The notes beneath the pieces were generated by a model. The model did not search any database. It was not told the DNA's origin and was given only the letters and a program-made list of their open reading frames with translations. DNA of 9,156 bases from a virus (taxonomy: Duplodnaviria > Heunggongvirae > Uroviricota > Caudoviricetes): positions 1 to 9,156 of IMG/VR virus record IMGVR_UViG_2579778919_000004; one strand, given 5' to 3'. This document shows, piece after piece, positions 1 to 9,156 of this stretch (its first letter is position 1; each line of letters starts with the position of its first letter). The position numbers and the translations under genes are program-made.

Positions 1-1
1 C

Positions 2-700
2 TCAGGTGTCTGGATATCGCACCTGCTGGAAAACCTGCCGGAAGAGAAACTGGCATCGGCGCTGAAAGATGACAACCCGAACTGGGAGTATATCGACGGC
101 GAAATCGTCAAGCAGGGATCGCTGGCCCACAGTCAACTTGATATCCCGGAACTCCAGCGCCGGGGGCTGGTCATTCTGGCTTCGGAGAGTAAGGATTTTC
201 GTCTGCTGGCGCATCTGCTGAGAACCCTGCAACACGCCGGTGATCCTCATCTCGCATTGCGCCTGCTGGCGCTGTATGTGGAGCATTACTGGGCGGTGGC
301 TGCGCCGCAGAATATGGCGCATAAAAAACGCTTTGCCAGCCAGGTCATTAAACGCTTTGAAACAGGTATTGAAGTTTTTTCACAGAACGCCGCCACAGCG
401 CAGCGCGATGCGCTGTCAGGGGAACTGGCAAAACTGGCGCAATGCTGGCAGTCACATAACGCCCCGGAACTGGCACAGGCTACTGATGATCTTTTTGCCC
501 TGTACCAGCGTGCGTTTAATCGTGCGGCACCGGCTCCTGTCCCCACTCCGGCGGCCTCCGGTAGTTCACCACAGACCACCGCCACGTCTGAAAGCGGCGT
601 GACGCAACCCAGTGCTCCGGCTCCCCAAATCGTCATCGACAGTCACGACGACAAAGCCTGGCGCGACACGCTGTTAAACATGACGGGCGTTAGGGGTTAA
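2..700 (+). CDS. 3' portion of a host chromosomal gene (5' end lies outside the window); unidentified protein with a Pro/Ala/Ser/Thr-rich linker; possible ImpA_N/TssA-like N-terminal domain; probable prophage integration target
   Basis: Seen in sequence: the frame starting at position 2 is open with no stops to TAA at 698-700; the first in-frame ATG at 257 is probably internal. This stretch is visibly more GC-rich than the phage DNA to its right. The C-terminal part has a low-complexity linker (PAPVPTPAASGSSPQTTATSESGVTQPSAPAP). Motifs SKDFRLLAHLL and LALRLLALYVEHYW are reminiscent of ImpA_N-type domains, recalled from memory and unverified. The stop overlaps the integrase stop on the opposite strand (TTAA at 697-700). 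Confidence 0.55.
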   Translation, partial: SGVWISHLLENLPEEKLASALKDDNPNWEYIDGEIVKQGSLAHSQLDIPELQRRGLVILASESKDFRLLAHLLRTLQHAGDPHLALRLLALYVEHYWAVAAPQNMAHKKRFASQVIKRFETGIEVFSQNAATAQRDALSGELAKLAQCWQSHNAPELAQATDDLFALYQRAFNRAAPAPVPTPAASGSSPQTTATSESGVTQPSAPAPQIVIDSHDDKAWRDTLLNMTGVRG

Positions 701-2010
701 CTTACTGATTTTAATAATCCTCCCGTACTGTTCTCGTGGCTATGGGGCATCAATGGGGCAAAATCTGCCAGCTTCTGATTCAGCATTGCGATCTGCTCTG
801 CGCTGCTGTCAGCCATCCATGCACCGTAAACATTGAACACCATCTGCGCGCTCGCATGCCCCATCTGACTGGCAATAAAACTCGGGTTTGCACCAGCAGA
901 TAATGACCAGCACGCATAGGTATGTCGTGACTGGTACGCCTTTCTGTGTCTGATCCCCGCGCGCTTTAGTGCAGCTTCCCATGAGTCGCCTACTGAATCG
1001 ACCCGGTAGATAAATCCGACCTGCTTACTGCGCCTGACCACATGCGGGTTAAAGACGAATGTACACTCATGGGTCACCGAACGACCGTACTCACGTAACT
1101 GCACTTCAATGTGATATTGCCTGCCCAGCCTTGTCATTTCAGCCTGATTTTTCAGGATACTGATTGCGGGCTGGATAAGATGCACCACTCGATCTGTGCT
1201 TGCCTCGGTTTTCGGTAGAGTGAACTCACCAAGTTTCGTATAATTACGCCTGACGGTAATTGTTCCCGCCTTCAGGTCGATATCTTCCCAGGCCAGGGAA
1301 ACCAGTTCCCCGTGACGCATTCCTGTGTACACTGCTAATGACCACAGGTTTTTCGTCTGCTGATGCCGGCATGCATCTATCAGGCGAATAAATTCATCAC
1401 GAGACAGAGGATCTGGTTCTGCCCTGGCTTTTTTCAGAGGCTTAATTCCCTCGAATGGATTCACCTCTAAGTAACCGTGATCCGCAGCAAACTGAAACAT
1501 TCCGGCCATTGTCGTCATGTAATAGTTCACAGTAACAACGCTTCGCCCTTTTGTCGGGGATTTGTTTTTCGTCGGATTCTGGTAACCAGTTAGCAAATCT
1601 TTCCTGAGATACAGCAATTCCTCTTTGGTTACTGCTGACGCCAGGCGATTACCTCCGATCCTCGGAACCATATTCCTTGCGACAGACTCATAGCGATTGA
1701 ATGCGTTCGCGCAGATTTCCATCCGTTTCAGATCCAGCCATTTTTCTTCAAGTTCTTTCACTGTAATGTCTTTTTTACTTACACCAAAAGCCTTGAGATT
1801 AGGGGAGTCAGGAAACTGGGTTGCATAATCAAAGGTTCCTGTGCGGATGGCAAAACATACTGATATCCGCAGTTCCCCGGCTATCTTCCTGTTCTTAGCG
1901 GTGTCAGGGACACCGAGACTTTCCCTGACACGCTTACCTTTAAAATTAAACCAGATGCGTAATGTGCCACCGTGGTTTTCGACGCCTGTTGGATATGTGA
2001 CTTTATCCAT
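697..2010 (-). CDS. int: Phage tyrosine integrase (site-specific recombinase), 437 aa
   Basis: ATG at 2008-2010 preceded by a GGAGG Shine-Dalgarno 5 nt upstream. The C-terminal catalytic region has tyrosine-recombinase hallmarks: YTGMRHGEL (Arg box), SRHTYACW, QMGHAS and NVYGAWM (candidate nucleophilic Tyr). The N-terminal region (RIWFNFKGKRVRESLG ... GTFDYATQFP) resembles Rac/lambdoid integrases. Position at the prophage end next to xis. Confidence 0.95.
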   Translation of the reverse strand: MDKVTYPTGVENHGGTLRIWFNFKGKRVRESLGVPDTAKNRKIAGELRISVCFAIRTGTFDYATQFPDSPNLKAFGVSKKDITVKELEEKWLDLKRMEICANAFNRYESVARNMVPRIGGNRLASAVTKEELLYLRKDLLTGYQNPTKNKSPTKGRSVVTVNYYMTTMAGMFQFAADHGYLEVNPFEGIKPLKKARAEPDPLSRDEFIRLIDACRHQQTKNLWSLAVYTGMRHGELVSLAWEDIDLKAGTITVRRNYTKLGEFTLPKTEASTDRVVHLIQPAISILKNQAEMTRLGRQYHIEVQLREYGRSVTHECTFVFNPHVVRRSKQVGFIYRVDSVGDSWEAALKRAGIRHRKAYQSRHTYACWSLSAGANPSFIASQMGHASAQMVFNVYGAWMADSSAEQIAMLNQKLADFAPLMPHSHENSTGGLLKSVS

Positions 2011-2065
2011 TGATACCTCCAGACGCCCAAGAGCGATATGAGCTTACCTTTTTCATGGCATCAAA

Positions 2066-2302
2066 TCACCCTGGCTGTTTGTTTTTCATTGAAGCCACCC
2101 AGGCATCGACCGCTTTACGGTTATACATGCATTCACTTGATGGCTTCGGGTTACCATCTGGTGAAACGTGGATATATTCCCGGCCAATCATCCAGCACTC
2201 TTTTCTGGCCCGGAGGATGGTACCGGGCTTGAGCCCGGTCACCGCGATCAGAACACTTTCACAAACCCAATCGTTAGGAGCTAACTGAATAACATTGCTC
2301 AT
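2066..2302 (-). CDS. xis: Excisionase (Xis-type DNA-binding protein), 78 aa
   Basis: Small ORF immediately upstream of int on the same strand; ATG at 2300-2302. The segment GTILRARKECWMIGREYIHV resembles the winged-helix core of lambdoid excisionases (lambda Xis has a comparable RECRIF...DGREY pattern). Confidence 0.8.
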   Translation of the reverse strand: MSNVIQLAPNDWVCESVLIAVTGLKPGTILRARKECWMIGREYIHVSPDGNPKPSSECMYNRKAVDAWVASMKNKQPG

Positions 2303-2311
2303 ATACCCGCC

Positions 2312-2461
2312 TCACACCACGTCAAGGCCACGGCAGTGGCACCACGTTTCGAACATTCGTTTAACCACTTCCCGGCAGTAGAACCCTTCCTGATCCCTAG
2401 AGAGGTCGTAGCGGTTGCTGTAACGCTGGCGCACCCATATTTCAAATGCCTTGTGCATCAT
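2312..2461 (-). CDS. Small hypothetical protein (49 aa), translated by hand; absent from the ORF track, probably because it is short
   Basis: Manual translation of the minus strand gives MMHKAFEIWVRQRYSNRYDLSRDQEGFYCREVVKRMFETWCHCRGLDVV. The ATG at 2459-2461 overlaps the stop of the upstream gene and follows GGAGGTGAA. It fills an otherwise unexplained 155-nt gap in a tightly packed operon. Confidence 0.4.
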   Translation of the reverse strand: MMHKAFEIWVRQRYSNRYDLSRDQEGFYCREVVKRMFETWCHCRGLDVV

Positions 2462-2769
2462 TTCACCTCCGCAGATAACGTCGTCACAATTACATGCTGG
2501 CGCGCCTTGGGCTTTATCAGAAAAATAGCCTTGTCATACCTGAGTCCGTATCCACCTTCACGTTCGCAGCGTGCGACTGAGGCGCACAAAGAGCGGGGAA
2601 TACCTTTCTTGCTGACATCAAATACCCAGGCGTTTTTGAGATCGAGGATCAGATTTCCTACATCGCCACCAATGCGTTCGATATAGCGTTCAATAGCGTG
2701 AACAGTCACCATGTAGTGGCGAAACTGCACACTTCCTGAGGCGGTCATTATTGGTGTAGTGGTGGTCAT
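2458..2769 (-). CDS. Hypothetical phage protein (103 aa from the ATG at 2767-2769)
   Basis: The track ORF 2458..2805 begins further upstream, but GGAGGTGAAGTG-ATG places the likely start at 2769, overlapping the stop of the upstream gene (ATGA). No recognisable domain. Confidence 0.7.
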   Translation of the reverse strand: MTTTTPIMTASGSVQFRHYMVTVHAIERYIERIGGDVGNLILDLKNAWVFDVSKKGIPRSLCASVARCEREGGYGLRYDKAIFLIKPKARQHVIVTTLSAEVK

Positions 2770-3260
2770 CACTTCACCTCCACGCCGATCCCGGCAATGA
2801 CACAAGCTCGTTCTATAGCTTCTTTCGCCCAGCGCTTATAGGTTTCCGGATGGAAAGCCTCGCTTTTGCCTGTACCGCTCCAGAATGCTTTTGAACCAGT
2901 ATCTGGCAGGGTGATGGTCAATTGCTTACCATTGGTAACATCGTTAATCAGCCCTGACTTAATATTCAGTTGCAATTCTTTGTCTATCAGTGCTTCTTCC
3001 AGTTCGGCAACATGGCATTCAGAATCAATCAGGTTGCTTTCCACAGAAGACAGGGCTTGTTTTAGTCGCTCGATCTCCGCCGCCATGTAGTAACCGGTTT
3101 TGCTCCAGGTATCCACATCATCACCGGTCATATCCGGTTCCATCGTCGCCATGAGAATGGCGTCGTGATAGTCCTGGCTGCCACTGGTAATCGCAACAGC
3201 GTAGGTGTCACTGTTTTCGCGCTTATGGATAAGCACGACAGGGTTAGTGATTTTGCTCAT
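2769..3260 (-). CDS. Hypothetical phage protein, 163 aa, with a predicted central coiled-coil-like segment
   Basis: ORF with ATG at 3258-3260 overlapping the upstream stop (ATGA). The central region (AAEIERLKQALSSVESNLIDSECHVAELEEALIDKELQL) has a heptad-like character. No recognised family. Confidence 0.72.
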   Translation of the reverse strand: MSKITNPVVLIHKRENSDTYAVAITSGSQDYHDAILMATMEPDMTGDDVDTWSKTGYYMAAEIERLKQALSSVESNLIDSECHVAELEEALIDKELQLNIKSGLINDVTNGKQLTITLPDTGSKAFWSGTGKSEAFHPETYKRWAKEAIERACVIAGIGVEVK

Positions 3261-3481
3261 CGTGCCGCCTCTCGCTGGATTGTCTTGTGGGCTCGCAACA
3301 TATCGCGGGATTTTCCGGACAAAACCGTCTTCATGAAGAACATTCCACTGCGGTTTGCAACTATTCCTGGAGTGCAGATCAGCGTGGCGTCTACCACCCG
3401 GTTATGTTTACGGAATTCAAACACCGTGCTGGTGATAACGATGTTCGCCACGGCGCCGTAGTCCTGGTATTGGATTTTCAT
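3257..3481 (-). CDS. Hypothetical small phage protein, 74 aa
   Basis: ATG at 3479-3481 preceded by GAGGAG with an 8-nt spacer; overlaps the stop of the upstream clamp-like gene (ATGA). Confidence 0.7.
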   Translation of the reverse strand: MKIQYQDYGAVANIVITSTVFEFRKHNRVVDATLICTPGIVANRSGMFFMKTVLSGKSRDMLRAHKTIQREAAR

Positions 3482-4044
3482 GCCAGATGCTCCTCAACAA
3501 TTTTGAAAGCATCATCACGGCATGGCATCACGACGAACTCAGGGTTACCGTATGTAGTGTTGATCACTGGATCGAACTGAATGCGTACCGCTCCAGCCTC
3601 ACCGGAAGGGCGTAACTGGATGGGAATAAACTTTCGCTCGCGACCAAACATCTTTTCCGGATAGCTGAGGTATTCAGCCTGGATAACCGGATTGATACTG
3701 AAATCCACTTTTTTCGGGATGACGCGTTCCATATCAGGAAAACGACCATCAACAAGTTTGATGCCAGTGATCAAGATCCGACGCTCGAACGTGTCGCGGT
3801 GAATGGCAAAGGCTTCTTTGTTGAATACCAGTTCAGTGGTTTCCGCTTTCGCCGGAACCGGTCCTTCAAACTGGACGATGATGTTTTTCTTCGTCCGGAT
3901 GCCGTGCTCCATGCGCAGTGCTACATGCCCGTTAGTTGACTCGATATATTTCGGAGTGATGTGCACACCATTCAGGTAGTAACGGACATCATTTTTTGCA
4001 GCGCATACCAGAGCTGCGCGAATGAGTTTCGACTGGATGATCAT
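3478..4044 (-). CDS. Truncated DNA polymerase III beta sliding clamp (DnaN)-like protein, 188 aa, corresponding to clamp domain II plus an abbreviated domain III
   Basis: Three colinear motifs match E. coli DnaN as I recall it: DVRYYLNG (DnaN domain II, with flanking K-LI-A and T-GH-LA context), KLVDGRFPD..RV.PK (DnaN TSKLVDGRFPDYRRVLPK) and the C-terminal VVMP.R (DnaN ends AAYVVMPMRL). The ORF is about half the length of DnaN (366 aa) and lacks domain I. Strong tandem SD (GGAGGTGGAGG) before the ATG at 4042-4044. Confidence 0.7.
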   Translation of the reverse strand: MIIQSKLIRAALVCAAKNDVRYYLNGVHITPKYIESTNGHVALRMEHGIRTKKNIIVQFEGPVPAKAETTELVFNKEAFAIHRDTFERRILITGIKLVDGRFPDMERVIPKKVDFSINPVIQAEYLSYPEKMFGRERKFIPIQLRPSGEAGAVRIQFDPVINTTYGNPEFVVMPCRDDAFKIVEEHLA

Positions 4045-4871
4045 GCCTCCACCTCCACGAAGATCTCTTTCGGATCCTTACGCAGAACGAAGCCACCAAA
4101 TTCAGGATGTTGCCAGCGCTTGCGTTTACCGCTTGGGGGAACGGATTCTTCCAGCAGCACCTGAAATGCGTGAATGAACGATTCACGGTGTACGCACAGC
4201 CCACGAACTCCCGGCAACTGTCTGGAGGGCAGGTTTGCGAACTGAACAAGACGACGGCACGAAGGATCGGACAGACTGGTTTCCCATGACACTTTGTGTA
4301 CCGGAACGAATTCGGCATCGGTATTCACGAATTCAGTCGAACTAATGCGCCGTTGTGGTAGAGAGGAAGATACAGGCGAAGCAGCAACCAGGTTGGTGCC
4401 ACTCACTTCCATTACTGCTTTCATCGTCGCTGATGCGGTTGCTTCGGCCACAACACGGGCCAGCGAAAGAATGTCATGGTTCATGCTGATTTCCTGCTGG
4501 TGTGATTTAGCTACTGGCACTTCTTTGCTGTATGTGCCTGTGGTCATGATGGCAGGGAGTACATCTTCACAAACCCAGTCCTGTACGCGTTCAGCCGATG
4601 GAAGCTGGCTTCGCAGGATAAGGCGGAACAAGTCGGCCTGACCAGCAAGCTGAGTACCGCGCGGTTTTTCACCAAACCCCAATTCTAACGATTCGTTATA
4701 ATCAAGTTTAATCAATGCCTTGCAGTGGTCTTTCAGCGCTTTTGCTGGGTTCGTATAACCGAGGGATTTAGCCAGTTCTACAGCGTCAAACGCTGGCTTT
4801 CCCTCATAAAGAATTCCGCTCATAGAAAAATTGAGTTCTTCTGAGCTAAAGGTCATAAGTTGTTTATTCAT
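4041..4871 (-). CDS. BRO-N domain protein (phage antirepressor-like N-terminal domain) with an uncharacterised C-terminal half, 276 aa
   Basis: The N-terminal ~120 aa shows a BRO-N pattern: FSSEELNFSMSGILYEGKPAFDAVELAKSLGYTNP ... DLFRLILRSQLPSAERVQDWVCEDVLPAIMTTGTY. ATG at 4869-4871 preceded by GAGGGAAATAACG. The C-terminal ~150 aa has no recognisable motifs. Confidence 0.82.
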   Translation of the reverse strand: MNKQLMTFSSEELNFSMSGILYEGKPAFDAVELAKSLGYTNPAKALKDHCKALIKLDYNESLELGFGEKPRGTQLAGQADLFRLILRSQLPSAERVQDWVCEDVLPAIMTTGTYSKEVPVAKSHQQEISMNHDILSLARVVAEATASATMKAVMEVSGTNLVAASPVSSSLPQRRISSTEFVNTDAEFVPVHKVSWETSLSDPSCRRLVQFANLPSRQLPGVRGLCVHRESFIHAFQVLLEESVPPSGKRKRWQHPEFGGFVLRKDPKEIFVEVEA

Positions 4872-4882
4872 CGTTATTTCCC

Positions 4883-5461
4883 TCAGTGCATAACTGGCAT
4901 TTCTGGCATGCCGTTGGCGTTAATCTCTCCGATGTAGTCATCGTGAAGCATCTCAAGTCCTTTTCGCCCAAAGGGTGACATCCTGAATCCGCACCCCGGA
5001 TCCGCAATCACCATGTCCTGATACATGCGAAGGGCTAGGGCTGAACCCTCGCAAACGCCATATTTCTCTATGGCGATGCTTTCCACATGGTTAGCGAGAG
5101 AAAAACGCAGTGGACCGGGGTAGATACTCAAATTTCCTTTCTTACCCGAATAAATAACTGCGATATCAACGCCGCCGTCACCGTTAGGAACCTCAACCAT
5201 GCCGTTCTTATCCTTCTCTTCGTTGATGAATACTGTTGCTACCAGCCAGCGCCACAGAATGAGTTCTTTCTCTGCGCCTAAAGAAACCAAACCAGCTGCC
5301 ACGGCATCCATAATGCAGGCCAACCAACGCAGCCCCTCTGAGTTGCGGGAGTCAAAGCGCGAACCATCGAATTGTTTAACCGCGCCAGACCAGCCAATAA
5401 CGCGAGTTCCGATCTTGATGCCGTTTGGCGTAGTTTCTGGCGCGTCGTAATTGCTGCTCAT
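4883..5461 (-). CDS. Hypothetical phage protein, 192 aa
   Basis: ATG at 5459-5461 preceded by GGAGGG with a 6-nt spacer; overlaps the upstream stop (ATGA). No recognised domain. Confidence 0.78.
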   Translation of the reverse strand: MSSNYDAPETTPNGIKIGTRVIGWSGAVKQFDGSRFDSRNSEGLRWLACIMDAVAAGLVSLGAEKELILWRWLVATVFINEEKDKNGMVEVPNGDGGVDIAVIYSGKKGNLSIYPGPLRFSLANHVESIAIEKYGVCEGSALALRMYQDMVIADPGCGFRMSPFGRKGLEMLHDDYIGEINANGMPEMPVMH

Positions 5462-5880
5462 CGAATACCCTCCGGTTTACTGGCCTGTAGTTCGTCAACC
5501 TCTTTAACGAAGCGGTCGTGCATGGCGTCCCACTTCTCACACCATTTCGTCATGTCACGCTTAATGGCCAGAATGCGGCGAAGACGTCGAACACAGCGCT
5601 GGTGGGCTCCGATGTACTCAACTGTTGTGCCTCCTCGCTGCCAACAATTCAGCTCTGGATTGAGTGGGTGGACTGCCTGCACATCCGGGTGCCGCTGCTC
5701 GAAGCCGGAGCGATAAAACGCTTCTGAAGTCATAAAGAACGCCAGATAGCGGATCGCCGTATCTCGCGTGAAGCATTTTTTGATACGACCGTGGCGTACT
5801 GCCACGAACAGTGGGCCAACTGGCGTATCGTGTTTCTGTAATGCAAGGTCAATCATGCTTACGGTGCGTTTATCGTTCAT
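5458..5880 (-). CDS. Hypothetical phage protein, 140 aa, with four Cys and a basic stretch (possible metal- or nucleic-acid-binding)
   Basis: ATG at 5878-5880 overlapping the upstream stop (ATGA). Cys at KKCF, NCWQ, HQRCV and KWCEKW; arginine-rich RCVRRLRRILAIKR. No recognised family. Confidence 0.72.
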   Translation of the reverse strand: MNDKRTVSMIDLALQKHDTPVGPLFVAVRHGRIKKCFTRDTAIRYLAFFMTSEAFYRSGFEQRHPDVQAVHPLNPELNCWQRGGTTVEYIGAHQRCVRRLRRILAIKRDMTKWCEKWDAMHDRFVKEVDELQASKPEGIR

Positions 5881-6098
5881 TTCCGATCCTTAACTTTGCT
5901 GTATCGCTCGTGACTCATTACTTCCCAGTTCTTTCCGCCATCGCGGGAGAGTAGCCGCCAGCGGTGATTAACCTTGAGGCTCAAATTACCGGAGCCGTGC
6001 ATACGGCAGGGGTGAATGCGCCTTGCTCTGAACTGGCTTAAAACGTGTGCTGCTTTGAGGTGAACCCACTCAGGAATTCGAATTGCTGTCAGTGCCAC
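5877..6098 (-). CDS. Hypothetical small phage protein, 73 aa, with a probable GTG start
   Basis: The first codon of the track ORF is GTG, not ATG, and is preceded by AGGAG with a ~7-nt spacer. The 5' end overlaps the 3' end of the upstream gene by 29 nt. An internal start is an alternative. Confidence 0.55.
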   Translation of the reverse strand: MALTAIRIPEWVHLKAAHVLSQFRARRIHPCRMHGSGNLSLKVNHRWRLLSRDGGKNWEVMSHERYSKVKDRK

Positions 6099-6321
6099 CA
6101 GTTAGCTCCTGTATACGTAACCCGGCTTCGCGAGCCATTTTGATAAAAGTGTCCAGTGCGCAAATATGTTCGTCGTCGAGCAGCCGGCGGTCGCATGTCA
6201 CACGCCCTTTTTCTATGTAAAGAACCACGCGTCCGGTGAAATCCGGAAGCACATGCAGATCCACGTTGAGGACTGGGGGGGGGATCTGCATTCCGTGCAT
6301 AATTGTTTGTTGTGAGGCCAT
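6070..6321 (-). CDS. Hypothetical small phage protein, 83 aa; contains a C9 homopolymer in its coding sequence
   Basis: ATG at 6319-6321 preceded by GGAGGAATTAACTG. The codons for IPPP (ATC CCC CCC CCA) form a 9-nt C run, seen as G9 on the + strand at ~6275-6283. Confidence 0.65.
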   Translation of the reverse strand: MASQQTIMHGMQIPPPVLNVDLHVLPDFTGRVVLYIEKGRVTCDRRLLDDEHICALDTFIKMAREAGLRIQELTGGTDSNSNS

Positions 6322-6683
6322 CAGTTAATTCCTCCACATACGTATTTCTCTTTCGCGTGTTTAATTAACTCCGCAAAAATCTCGTCAACAATCATCTTTC
6401 CGGTTTCGGTCAGATATTCGGTGTGTCCATTGATATCGACGCTTTTCATATACGTCTGGCGAAGAAATGTTTCCGCTTCTGTGTTGAATTCAGTCCGATC
6501 CTGTTTTTCGAAGCGCAGCAAAAGTTTCAGTATTGATTCTTCGTTAATCTCGATAACCTGAATATTGTCATCGGGCATATTTACGGAGAGACAATAACCT
6601 CCTGTCTTGCGCTTCATTCGGTTTAATGTCGCAATAGCAATGCGGCGGCGATAAATTTCAATGGTGTTGTTTTTCATTGTCAC
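6321..6683 (-). CDS. Hypothetical phage protein, 120 aa; first gene of the tightly coupled block
   Basis: ORF with ATG at 6681-6683 (a second ATG lies two codons in); moderate SD-like GGGCGG upstream. Its stop overlaps the start of the next gene (TGATG). No recognised domain. Confidence 0.68.
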   Translation of the reverse strand: MTMKNNTIEIYRRRIAIATLNRMKRKTGGYCLSVNMPDDNIQVIEINEESILKLLLRFEKQDRTEFNTEAETFLRQTYMKSVDINGHTEYLTETGKMIVDEIFAELIKHAKEKYVCGGIN

Positions 6684-6776
6684 TACCGCCCGTAAGCCTT
6701 GCGCAGAAAAAGGTTTGCAATATGCAGATAACTATTTCCATAAGAGGCGAAAAGTTTTGCTGTCTTGTGTGCTGCT

Positions 6777-7073
6777 TTATCTTTCAGAAACGTCATTATT
6801 GCCCCCCCCTTTGAGGTGTTCTCCATCGTCATTTTTTGTCATGAAGCAAAGCTCATTAAGTAATGAGGTGAATCTTCCCGCTACCTTCACATCAGTGCGT
6901 GTGATTGCGGGCATAAGTAACTGGGTAAATTCAGCACGCAGCTCATGCGCATATTTATTGGCACACTCTGCTGTTTTGTGGGCTTTATTTATGTAAAGAA
7001 AGTCGCCATCCTGATTGGCTGGATGGACTTTGTTATTCACGATTTCACTTCTGACGATAATATTCATTTGCAT
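6777..7073 (-). CDS. Hypothetical protein, 98 aa (or 96 aa from the ATG at 7065-7067); AT-rich moron-like gene with a G8 tract near its 3' end
   Basis: The ORF lies in AT-rich DNA. GAGG sits only 2 nt before the first ATG but 8 nt before the third-codon ATG, which favours the latter start. The codons for KGGGN contain G8, seen as C8 on the + strand at ~6802-6809. Confidence 0.62.
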   Translation of the reverse strand: MQMNIIVRSEIVNNKVHPANQDGDFLYINKAHKTAECANKYAHELRAEFTQLLMPAITRTDVKVAGRFTSLLNELCFMTKNDDGEHLKGGGNNDVSER

Positions 7074-7140
7074 TTCCTCAGGGTGAGTTTTTCCCCACCC
7101 TAAAAGGTGTTAATTATTAATAATTGACTTAATTAGTTAG

Positions 7141-7434
7141 TTAAATAGCAGAGAACATTTTCTTAATATCAGGATGGTCATCTATGATTTTTTTAGCATC
7201 ATCACATGCCTCGTCATATGATTTAAAGAAATCAACTAATACGAAATAATTTTCGATGCGTTCGTAAACGGCGAACTCCATCTCACCAACAAATGTCGTA
7301 TTGAATTGGTAATCAAAACCTTTATCGTGAGGCTGCACAGCATGGCAATAAGACCAATGCGAATTGGTTGATCTAAGCTTGGCGTGAATATCAAATGTCT
7401 GGCAGGTAGGTTTTGGTTGGGAGTTTGTGTTCAT
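7141..7434 (-). CDS. Hypothetical mildly acidic protein, 97 aa; first gene downstream of the predicted PL
   Basis: ATG at 7432-7434 preceded by GGAG with an 8-nt spacer. AT-rich composition. The protein is Asp/Glu-rich toward the C-terminus (DEACDDAKKIIDDHPD). It is not basic or Arg-rich, so it does not look like a lambda N-type antiterminator. Confidence 0.68.
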   Translation of the reverse strand: MNTNSQPKPTCQTFDIHAKLRSTNSHWSYCHAVQPHDKGFDYQFNTTFVGEMEFAVYERIENYFVLVDFFKSYDEACDDAKKIIDDHPDIKKMFSAI

Positions 7435-7560
7435 CTCATTGGCTCCGTTGTTTGCCGATGAAATGAGAATACTTAAGTATTAATTGAAGGTCAATGGTAT
7501 TAATACAAAAAGAATAATAGTTTTCTTATGTATTTGTTATTGAAGATTATTTTAGTAATA
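7435..7560 (-). promoter_or_regulatory. Predicted leftward early promoter and operator region (PL/OL analogue)
   Basis: On the minus strand: TTGACC (-35; + strand ggtcaa at ~7489-7494), a 17-nt spacer, then TATTCT (-10; + strand agaata at ~7466-7471), about 25 nt upstream of the ATG at 7434. A perfect 14-bp palindrome AATACTTAAGTATT (~7468-7481) overlaps the -10 and spacer, and a second palindrome GTATTAATAC (~7497-7506) lies just upstream of the -35. Both share the TAATAC half-site found in the cI-cro intergenic region. Confidence 0.4.
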
Positions 7561-7598
7561 AAAAAGCCGACGCTATGGTCGGCTTGGTGCTTTTTTGG
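7559..7598 (-). terminator. Rho-independent terminator downstream of the repressor gene (hairpin flanked by an A-run and a T-run, so potentially bidirectional)
   Basis: AAAAAA-AAGCCGAC-gctatg-GTCGGCTT-ggtgc-TTTTTT: a perfect 8-bp stem with a 6-nt loop. On the minus strand the stem is followed directly by TTTTTTATT, about 20 nt past the repressor stop. Confidence 0.6.
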
Positions 7599-7605
7599 CA
7601 GCGGA

Positions 7606-8298
7606 TCAGAAGATTGTTGATACCCAAAACAGTCTTCCTAAAACTTCAAGACTATCCATGTCTACTTCTTCGTCAGGGTATTCATCAGAGTTGTAGCTTC
7701 TGATTGTCACCTTATCTGGCCCAGATCTGTAGAGGATTTTTAACCTTTTCCATCCACCTTGGTTGATGCCGTAAATTTTACCATCCACGATACGCTTGTC
7801 ATGGCAGTTTATGGCAACAGTTGAGCCATCAGCGATCACTGGCTCCATGCTATTTCCGTGTGCAGCAAAGCATAGAACGCCATCACCATCACTATTAGCT
7901 CCCACCTTTCGCAATGTTGCTTTGGAAAATCTAAGTTTTTTTCCATTGTAATCATCATTAAGGGCGCTGCCATCTCCACATGCGAACTCGATATCCTTCA
8001 AGTAAGGCACCTCTACCTCATCATCCTCAAGCGGCGTTTGCTTATCCCATGGATCTATACCAAACATTCTTTGTTCTGGCGTTTTTGCTGGCCCCATGGT
8101 GCCTTCACCAGTGCTTAACCATATGGGATCTACATCCAGTGCTTTGGCTATATCCACGATTTTTCCGCTGGACTGAGCTTTTCCTGAGGTTAGTTTTTGT
8201 ATGGCCCCCTGGCTTACCCCAACCCTATGCGCTAATTGACTTTGAGTAGCCCCAGCATGAGCCATCGCCAGCCTTAGTCTTTCTGCAAGTGTGTTCAT
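7606..8298 (-). CDS. CI-like prophage repressor: N-terminal XRE-type HTH plus C-terminal S24 (LexA/UmuD-like) autopeptidase domain, 230 aa
   Basis: N-terminal HTH (QSQLAHRVGVSQGAIQKLTSG). C-terminal S24 signatures: GNSMEP (catalytic Ser in a G-x-S-M context) and downstream WKRLK (candidate catalytic Lys). Candidate autocleavage site Cys-Gly in FACGDG, as in UmuD. ATG at 8296-8298 preceded by GGAG. Divergent from a cro-like gene. Confidence 0.9.
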   Translation of the reverse strand: MNTLAERLRLAMAHAGATQSQLAHRVGVSQGAIQKLTSGKAQSSGKIVDIAKALDVDPIWLSTGEGTMGPAKTPEQRMFGIDPWDKQTPLEDDEVEVPYLKDIEFACGDGSALNDDYNGKKLRFSKATLRKVGANSDGDGVLCFAAHGNSMEPVIADGSTVAINCHDKRIVDGKIYGINQGGWKRLKILYRSGPDKVTIRSYNSDEYPDEEVDMDSLEVLGRLFWVSTIF

Positions 8299-8424
8299 CT
8301 TAGTATCTCCGATTTTTATGCATATTTAATACCACAGGATTAACCATGGCAAGCGGATAATACTTGATTAATTATTCCTTTGGTATTATTTTATATCTTT
8401 AATATTAATACTAAGGGCTTTGTT
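8299..8424. promoter_or_regulatory. Divergent immunity control region (OR analogue) with candidate PRM (leftward) and PR (rightward) promoters and repeated TAATAC-type operator half-sites
   Basis: AT-rich 126-bp intergenic region between the divergent repressor and cro-like genes. TAATAC or its complement occurs at ~8327, ~8358, ~8383 (complement) and ~8406. Imperfect palindromes: TAATACCACAGGATTA (~8327-8342), GGATAAT..ATTATTCC (~8355-8378), and CCTTTGGTATTA with TAATACTAAGGG (~8377-8417). Candidate PR: TTGATT (~8364-8369), 17 nt, TATTTT (~8387-8392). Candidate PRM on the minus strand: TTGCCA, 17 nt, TTAAAT (+ strand ~8347-8352 and ~8324-8329). Confidence 0.55.
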
Positions 8425-8667
8425 ATGACTGATGAGGTGTTTGAATCCCCAATGGCGAAAGCCGTGTACGTTGCTGGTGGTCAAAGTTCGCTTGCTAAAA
8501 AGGTTGGCGTTACGCAAGGGGCCGTCTGGAAGTGGGTCAGGGGGATCAAGAAAGTTTCTCCGGTCCATGCAGTGGCAGTATCAAACGCAGTTAATGGAAT
8601 TGTTAAGCCTCATGAACTGCGGCCTGATTTGCCGACTCTTTTCCCGCACCCGGGCAATGAGGTGTGA
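8425..8667 (+). CDS. Cro-like / YdaS-family HTH regulator, 80 aa
   Basis: ATG at 8425 preceded by AAGGG with a 7-nt spacer; the track start at 8380 is a TTG inside the operator region and was rejected. The segment AVYVAGGQSSLAKKVGVTQGAVWKWVRG ... ELRPDL resembles Rac prophage YdaS as I recall it (VVGGQSALARLLGVSPPSVNQWIKG ... ELRPDI). Divergent from the repressor. Confidence 0.8.
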   Translation: MTDEVFESPMAKAVYVAGGQSSLAKKVGVTQGAVWKWVRGIKKVSPVHAVAVSNAVNGIVKPHELRPDLPTLFPHPGNEV

Positions 8668-8668
8668 T

Positions 8669-8878
8669 ATGTCGCACTCAATCACTACCGAAAACCAAAT
8701 TAAGCAATTGGATATCGATTATCGCGATCCGCGCGGTGTGATTGTGCATGTCACCGGCTGGAATCGGGATAAGCAGCAGGTGTATTTCACCAGGCAGAAT
8801 TATCCGCATGAATGTATGCAGCCTGTCTGGAAGTTCCAACAATATTTTACGAAGGTCTCGGAGGCGCAAAATGCGTGA
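8669..8878 (+). CDS. Hypothetical small early protein, 69 aa
   Basis: ATG at 8669-8671 lies 1 nt after the cro-like stop and is preceded by GAGG with a 6-nt spacer. The longer track ORF from 8432 overlaps the cro-like gene in another frame and was rejected. No recognised domain. Confidence 0.6.
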   Translation: MSHSITTENQIKQLDIDYRDPRGVIVHVTGWNRDKQQVYFTRQNYPHECMQPVWKFQQYFTKVSEAQNA

Positions 8879-9156
8879 TTACGGAAAGGTGCCGTCTGAG
8901 TTTTGGTTGGACCAAAACGGCAACAAATGGAAAGTGCCCACGATCAAAGGTCGCCTGAAAATGCGCGTACCCTGCCATCGCGCACTACGCGAATTTGTTC
9001 TTTGGCGCGACGGTTTCAAATGCCGTCATTGTGGTAGTCAAGACCGCATTAAATTGGTCGCAGATCACATTGTATCGCGACGTAACGGTGGTGCTCACCA
9101 CCCAGACAACATGCAATGTTTGTGTGATTCCTGCAATGCGCGCAAGGCTTCCCTAG
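8871..9156 (+). CDS. HNH endonuclease family protein, 3'-truncated by the window edge
   Basis: ATG at 8871 preceded by GGAGG with a 6-nt spacer; overlaps the previous gene by 8 nt. Manual translation: MRDYGKVPSEFWLDQNGNKWKVPTIKGRLKMRVPCHRALREFVLWRDGFKCRHCGSQDRIKLVADHIVSRRNGGAHHPDNMQCLCDSCNARKASL. It has the C-x2-C ... D-H ... N ... H ... C-x2-C arrangement of the HNH motif. Confidence 0.8.
   Translation, partial: MRDYGKVPSEFWLDQNGNKWKVPTIKGRLKMRVPCHRALREFVLWRDGFKCRHCGSQDRIKLVADHIVSRRNGGAHHPDNMQCLCDSCNARKASL

Follow-up and report, generated by a model that had tools for sequence, protein, structure and literature searches.

The window analysed here is a stretch of 9,156 nucleotides covering positions 1 to 9,156 of the virus record IMGVR_UViG_2579778919_000004 (Caudoviricetes), and it represents the left arm of a lambdoid prophage together with the immunity region. 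Three consecutive plus-strand genes close it: a Cro analogue of 80 amino acids (8425-8667, with ATG at 8425 and TGA at 8665-8667), a 69-residue protein (8669-8878, ATG at 8669 and TGA at 8876-8878), and an HNH endonuclease gene (8871-9156) that runs past the window end and encodes 121 residues in relatives. The 69-residue protein, which belongs to the DUF4222 family of the regulator RgdR, is the main subject of this analysis.

In the Cro position we found a YdaS-family helix-turn-helix (HTH) protein, as a first-pass annotation made from the sequence alone had proposed. It matches the Pfam family YdaS_toxin (PF15943) at E=1.3e-17 and 63.8 bits, where the cut-off is 30, and the transcriptional repressors of PHROG 35 at E=1.6e-22; its gene diverges from an S24-type cI across a region with operator-like repeats, and a cro gene of the same length is annotated by RefSeq in Escherichia coli G3/10. 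The coupling junction, GAGGTGTGATATG (8660-8671, plus strand), comprises a Shine-Dalgarno sequence, the cro stop codon, a spacer consisting of a single base (T at 8668) and the start codon of the next gene; the Shine-Dalgarno sequence itself, GAGG at 8660-8663, lies within the last cro codons, five nucleotides ahead of the ATG at 8669. At the other end, the HNH open reading frame (ORF) begins at ATG 8871, overlaps the 69-residue gene by 8 nucleotides and is preceded by GGAGG at 8860-8864. The ORFs, the spacer and the overlap can all be read directly from the sequence, so the coordinates and description in the first-pass annotation, which placed a 69-residue gene one nucleotide past the cro stop, are correct. 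No terminator-like sites were found within 8425-8878, and promoter-like matches in the scanned region were not more frequent than in shuffled sequence.

The 69-residue ORF is a genuine gene, strongly conserved and under purifying selection. In a public-assembly collection, 1329 indexed blocks contain exactly this protein, and we retrieved 70 homologs with 52-97% identity, most of which are named 'DUF4222 domain-containing protein' in NCBI or UniRef. Among 46 distinct DNA versions of the gene, variable sites fall at the first, second and third codon positions in the numbers 21, 13 and 41, and the median pairwise ratio of nonsynonymous to synonymous substitution rates (dN/dS) is 0.13, a value that identifies the ORF as a real gene. 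The choice of start codon required some care; an alternative in-frame ATG is present at 8657, and in the window allele the frame is open across cro back to 8432, which would yield an ORF of 148 residues (8432-8878). Near-identical cro alleles interrupt this frame 22-31 codons upstream, which makes ATG 8669 the supported start; the interruption likewise led us to reject both the 148-residue ORF and a Cro-DUF4222 fusion produced by frameshifting. The longer form is an artefact, and it accounts for the 'DUF4222' proteins of 99-111 residues found in databases.

Membership of the DUF4222 family is near certain. The protein matches PF13973 over residues 18-63 (E=1e-12, 47.9 bits, gathering cut-off 27) and PHROG 1343, a family of 'unknown function', over 58 of 59 profile positions (E=8.9e-29), and its relatives are labelled DUF4222 by RefSeq. 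In an alignment of 41 sequences spanning 24-91% identity, the columns with at least 90% conservation define a family core of D20, G23, V26, V28, V38, R42, Y45, C49, P52, F56 and F60, all of which are present in the window protein; it also shares the family's small single-domain size and its location in early operons of Enterobacterales prophages and satellites. A Pfam scan at E<=1 returned DUF4222 only, with no lambda CII, CP76-type CII or YdaT, and no NCBIfam match was found. The first-pass annotation had recognised no similarity in this protein, a statement that holds for CII and YdaT but not in general, since the protein is readily recognisable as DUF4222/PHROG 1343; homology to a CII-like or YdaT-like family, which it had named as the finding that would refute its reading, did not appear. 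A genome scan using a narrow alignment recovered only four species-representative genomes, which belong to Enterobacter, Symbiopectobacterium, Serratia and Pantoea.

We then considered the predicted structure. The AlphaFold2 model, based on 29 homologs, has a mean predicted local distance difference test (pLDDT) score of 82.8, with values above 90 for residues 11-60, and consists of four β-strands, one helix of seven residues and a short fifth strand at the C-terminus, with no HTH. A Foldseek search against the PDB gave no match better than E=0.1, with SH3, Tudor, KOW and PWWP domains making up most of the list; matches in a viral structure library were limited to DUF1653 and uncharacterised small proteins. 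We read the modelled protein as an SH3/Tudor-like small barrel, that is, as a probable generic protein- or nucleic-acid-binding module. Bacterial barrels such as the UvrD/PcrA C-terminal domain, the CarD/CdnL N-domain, the Mfd RID and the NusG/Spt5 KOW domain share 9-13% identity with it, and scores just as high are obtained for eukaryotic Tudor and SH3 domains. On this model the resemblance to the bacterial barrels is that of a common fold class and is no evidence for homology or for RNA polymerase binding.

The genomic contexts of the gene are informative. After duplicates were removed, 75 non-redundant contexts of the 'CMQPVWK' DUF4222 subfamily were available for comparison. In phages Fraca, SaltyDalty and CharmingMan, in the E. 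coli G3/10 prophage and in six bacterial genome assemblies, all of them close relatives, cI lies to one side, and cro, DUF4222, a replication initiator, a Toprim/AAA primase-helicase of 623 residues and Q follow in that order on the other. The DUF4222 ATG stands one nucleotide past the upstream stop codon in 69 of the 74 contexts with an upstream gene, the junction GAGGTGTGAxATG moves together with DUF4222, and an overlap of 4 or 8 nucleotides with the gene that follows is present in 72/75. In 59 contexts this following gene is a replication initiator, in 14 (the window included) the 121-residue HNH gene and in 2 another gene. Classified with PHROG and Pfam, the initiators comprise Rep340 (PHROG 1701 / 25210; 26 contexts), O-like proteins (PHROG 9773 / 270; 27) and HTH_36 proteins (6). 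At least five kinds of downstream gene occur next to the same DUF4222, which is preceded by 49 distinct cro genes; given that the flanks vary on both sides, DUF4222 is a small conserved unit between recombination breakpoints.

Phage AsXd-1 provides a complementary case. Its cI-cro region is 97% identical to that of the window (AsXd-1 6001-7262 against window 7412-8673), the similarity breaks off at most a few bases from the cro stop codon, there is no DUF4222, and the replication module differs, with O-like, DnaC-like and DnaB-like genes. AsXd-1 was deposited as an Aeromonas salmonicida phage, yet prophages of Enterobacter and E. coli have a cI-cro region 97% identical to its own.

These co-occurrence data bear directly on the idea that the 69-residue protein is a partner of one of its neighbors, either as a subunit or regulator of the HNH nuclease or as half of a toxin-antitoxin-like pair with the YdaS-family Cro; a partnership with the HNH protein had been raised by the first-pass annotation. 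Genes that overlap or are spaced by one nucleotide suggest co-translation, and ectopic expression of YdaS and YdaT has been reported to be toxic, which counts in favor of such a pairing. The same DUF4222 is nonetheless found with all 49 cro genes and with every kind of downstream gene listed above, a nearly identical cro exists without it in AsXd-1, and PADLOC returned nothing for Cro or DUF4222, with no match to a toxin-antitoxin family. A YdaS/YdaT-type pair is therefore unlikely, and the HNH variant fares no better, given that the HNH gene comes next in only the 14 contexts and that HNH homologs precede Rep genes in phages without DUF4222. Taken together, the co-occurrence data largely refute a neighbor partnership, which we regard as scarcely credible.

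The HNH gene itself merits separate description. Its ORF matches Pfam HNH at E=8e-10, and a full-length relative (L015, 6001-7363) carries DUF4222, HNH (121 residues), Rep336 and the primase-helicase in that order; Rep336 is a different initiator allele whose C-terminal half is common to Rep340. In phages devoid of DUF4222, homologs of the HNH protein with 61-76% identity immediately precede initiator genes, and the homologs we compared (L031-L038) are always directly 5′ of a Rep gene, in diverse phages, some apparently of high GC content, with or without DUF4222. As these homologs precede initiators even where DUF4222 is missing, the HNH gene associates with the replication initiator and not with DUF4222, and its product could be a nuclease linked to replication and not a free homing endonuclease. 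It is an optional insert between DUF4222 and the initiator, accompanying a different Rep allele in full-length relatives. The first 12 residues of the HNH protein, MRDYGKVPSEFW, resemble the initiator N-termini MRDYGKVSPHFW and MARIRTIKPEFW, and the first 21 nucleotides of its gene are identical to the start of the Rep340 gene. One further protein, P0096 (257 residues), has an N-terminal region reminiscent of homing endonucleases and ends in frame with the last 23 DUF4222 residues, ENYPHECMQPVWKIKQYFTKVTQ, which suggests a nuclease insertion within a DUF4222 gene and raises the possibility that the junction is an insertion hotspot. With the 14 HNH contexts and this nuclease fused to a DUF4222 C-terminus, the DUF4222 junction appears to attract HNH endonuclease genes.

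The more distant members of the family are likewise found just ahead of replication genes, with the exceptions given below. In Yersinia YeP2, Serratia BZS1, Providencia PSTCR8lys and the 50%-cluster representatives P0079, P0080 and P0114, DUF4222 does not adjoin cro; the next gene lies directly downstream in all six, with a 4-nucleotide overlap. Those of the downstream genes that could be assigned to a family are replication initiators (HTH_36 and/or Phg_2220_C), whereas that behind P0114, truncated where the contig ends, matched none. The gene for RgdR runs into the start of a P4-alpha-like primase gene (DUF927), and RgdR-like genes from a plasmid collection directly adjoin genes for helicase RepA, AAA, DUF5906 or primase.

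Several DUF4222 genes are hidden by existing annotation. In SfV (3001-3180) and Hafnia phage yong2 (3489-3674) the gene is absent from the reference annotations or mis-framed; it is an ORF of 59-61 residues in a different frame that overlaps the 5′ end of the long ORF annotated as 'orf37 / Ash family protein', the N-terminal part of which is probably over-extended. A tblastn search had initially suggested a DUF4222-Ash fusion in these two phages, a candidate we rejected given that BLASTP against the annotated protein was empty and the match is a separate ORF in another frame. The same tblastn match lies beneath 'Rha/antirepressor/peptidase' features in many Stx, mEp460, cdtI and ST64B records. 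SfV orf38 (PHROG 1153) was also considered as a distant DUF4222 and set aside, as hhalign assigned it a probability of 4%.

The only characterised DUF4222 member is RgdR (ECs1581) of enterohaemorrhagic E. coli (EHEC) O157:H7 Sakai (PMC3378721, PMC10877973), which is encoded by the Sakai prophage-like element Sp7 / CP-933C (Flockhart et al. 2012, PMC3378721). RgdR stimulates the promoter LEE1 of the enterocyte effacement locus (LEE), and through it type III secretion, and when supplied in trans it represses motility; it binds DNA without sequence specificity, and its authors proposed a co-factor role (PMC3378721). An RGD tripeptide at residues 20-22 of ECs1581 was reported to be important for activity. 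We found that ECs1581, taken from the Sakai genome, matches PF13973 at E=2e-23, and that RgdR and the window protein align by BLASTP with 30% identity over 66 residues (E=1e-9), sharing the core motif D..G..V.V...V.F.R..Y.(H)EC..P...F...F. Both genes belong to an early operon, and the end of each runs into the start of the following gene, the primase in the case of RgdR. The differences are nevertheless considerable: RgdR has 99 residues, an isoelectric point (pI) of 10.1 and a basic C-terminal tail, whereas the window protein has 69 residues, a pI of 7.9 and no tail, ending six residues past the domain; the RGD motif after which RgdR is named aligns to Q13-L14-D15 (QLD); and RgdR lies in a P4-like satellite ahead of a primase, whereas the window gene lies in a lambdoid phage after cro. 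The window protein is thus RgdR-like only loosely, via the barrel, and lacks the RGD motif and basic tail that are tied to RgdR activity, the tail and its high pI being linked with non-specific binding to DNA. The Sp7 element (1594585-1610169 of Sakai) encodes an integrase, small early genes, a primase, major head protein, protease, portal, adaptor and terminase, with no tail genes within the listed stretch and with RgdR and the PerC-like PchE in the same early region. We take this layout to resemble that of capsid-forming phage-inducible chromosomal islands.

The position of the gene also invites comparison with lysogeny regulators. The window gene holds the same slot after cro in the rightward early operon as lambda CII, CP76-type CII (PF06892) and Rac YdaT, and one may postulate that it encodes a novel CII-analogous lysis-lysogeny regulator, as the first-pass annotation had suggested. 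This slot is that of lambda cII, no recognisable CII is present in the early-right operons of full-length relatives of the window phage, and promoter stimulation by a family member has been described for RgdR (PMC3378721). The known proteins of this slot are helical HTH proteins, however, while the window protein is predicted to be all-beta, has no HTH and matches none of them in sequence. Moreover, DUF4222 and a separate CP76-type CII occur together in the operons of SfV, YeP2, PSTCR8lys (by Pfam PF06892) and yong2 (by record annotation), so that the two are not mutually exclusive and DUF4222 is not the CII of these phages; there it adjoins replication or Ash genes and not cro, and in P4-like satellites it lies ahead of a primase. 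Given that the gene tracks replication genes in this manner, we judge a CII-like role to be very improbable.

The best explanation for these observations is that DUF4222 encodes an accessory early protein that is co-translated with the replication module, a reading in which our confidence is about even. In this reading the gene is transcribed from the rightward early promoter, and it is translationally coupled on two sides, to cro upstream through the one-nucleotide spacer and the Shine-Dalgarno sequence inside cro, and to a replication-module gene downstream through the 4- or 8-nucleotide overlap. It forms a small conserved junction gene between a highly mosaic immunity module and a mosaic replication module, and in the window the HNH gene has been slotted between it and the initiator. 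The protein would be an accessory cofactor produced along with the replication initiator, and may act by contacting other proteins, or DNA with low specificity, at the onset of the lytic or replicative programme, aiding origin or early-promoter function much as RgdR was proposed to act as a co-factor; it would be neither a CII-type lysogeny activator nor a subunit of the HNH nuclease. The replication-accessory mechanism taken by itself is a more tentative proposition to which we would assign rather less than an even chance.

This interpretation must be made cautiously, as several observations weigh against it. Copies of the same DUF4222, at 91-100% identity, occur alongside several unrelated initiator N-terminal domains and many cro alleles, which renders a specific complex with either neighbor unlikely; because the neighbors vary, the target is more likely to be something constant, either a host factor or the primase-helicase shared by the phage group. 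An Ash-family gene separates DUF4222 from the initiator in SfV and yong2, the primase of a Klebsiella P4-like element lies 2.3 kb downstream of DUF4222, and one EHEC copy of DUF4222 is an isolated remnant flanked by insertion sequences. In addition, since the window protein has neither the RGD motif nor the basic tail, the DNA binding of RgdR may not carry over to it.

In an alternative scenario, the protein is a host-directed modulator of transcription or of the nucleoid. Its barrel would bind RNA polymerase, in the manner of the Tudor-like domains of CarD, UvrD and Mfd, or would counteract H-NS, thereby tuning early transcription globally, and its proximity to replication genes would reflect operon layout only. 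The structural matches on which such a comparison draws are weak and generic, however, the RgdR features absent from the window protein are again relevant, and the phenotypes of RgdR derive largely from plasmid expression. This scenario also leaves unexplained why, in three kinds of element, the gene is so tightly coupled in translation to replication genes, and we consider it fairly unlikely.

A more novel proposal concerns the family as a whole. Under it, DUF4222 proteins would form a widespread and overlooked class of licensing cofactors, Tudor/SH3-like in fold, serving lambdoid phages and P4-like satellites, co-translated with an initiator or primase and opening early promoters or the origin on incoming DNA via a conserved host target, which could be RNA polymerase, H-NS-type nucleoid silencers or the replisome. 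The basis of this proposal is synteny, a generic fold and one published phenotype, and we think it distinctly unlikely; if it were true, the effects of RgdR on LEE and motility in EHEC would be a by-product of this function.

Elsewhere in the window, the integrase gene (697-2010) and a small excisionase-like ORF (2066-2302) lie on the minus strand, and the leftward early genes follow in series past the latter, one of them encoding a Bro-N protein. A cI-like repressor of 230 residues (7606-8298, minus strand), divergent from cro, matches Pfam Peptidase_S24 (E=7e-15) and HTH_3 (E=1e-8) as well as the transcriptional repressors of PHROG 4 (E=7e-50). In the intergenic region between cI and cro (8326-8420), a repeat search identified three copies of the operator-like sequence TTAATACCAnnGG, at 8326-8343, 8372-8388 (inverted) and 8405-8420, which from their position only may be operators. 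A strong bidirectional terminator-like hairpin lies 3′ of cI at 7564-7585, and past it is a conserved ORF of 97 residues (7141-7434, minus strand) that has no family match and was found in 6/6 genome contexts examined; in most of these six, a small S24-peptidase gene adjoins it, and the window has no such gene. No structured RNA was matched by Rfam across the whole window.

The product of the 69-residue gene is identical to a very common prophage protein, and to this extent the finding is an ordinary one; since the exact sequence and the DUF4222 label are already present in public databases, the protein itself was already known, and the suggested novelties, a new CII substitute or an HNH partner, do not hold. 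The RgdR family has so far been known only for its cross-talk with EHEC virulence genes. The recurrence of DUF4222 as a conserved, coupled junction leading from immunity to replication modules in many enterobacterial prophages provides a testable lead on the native role of this family.
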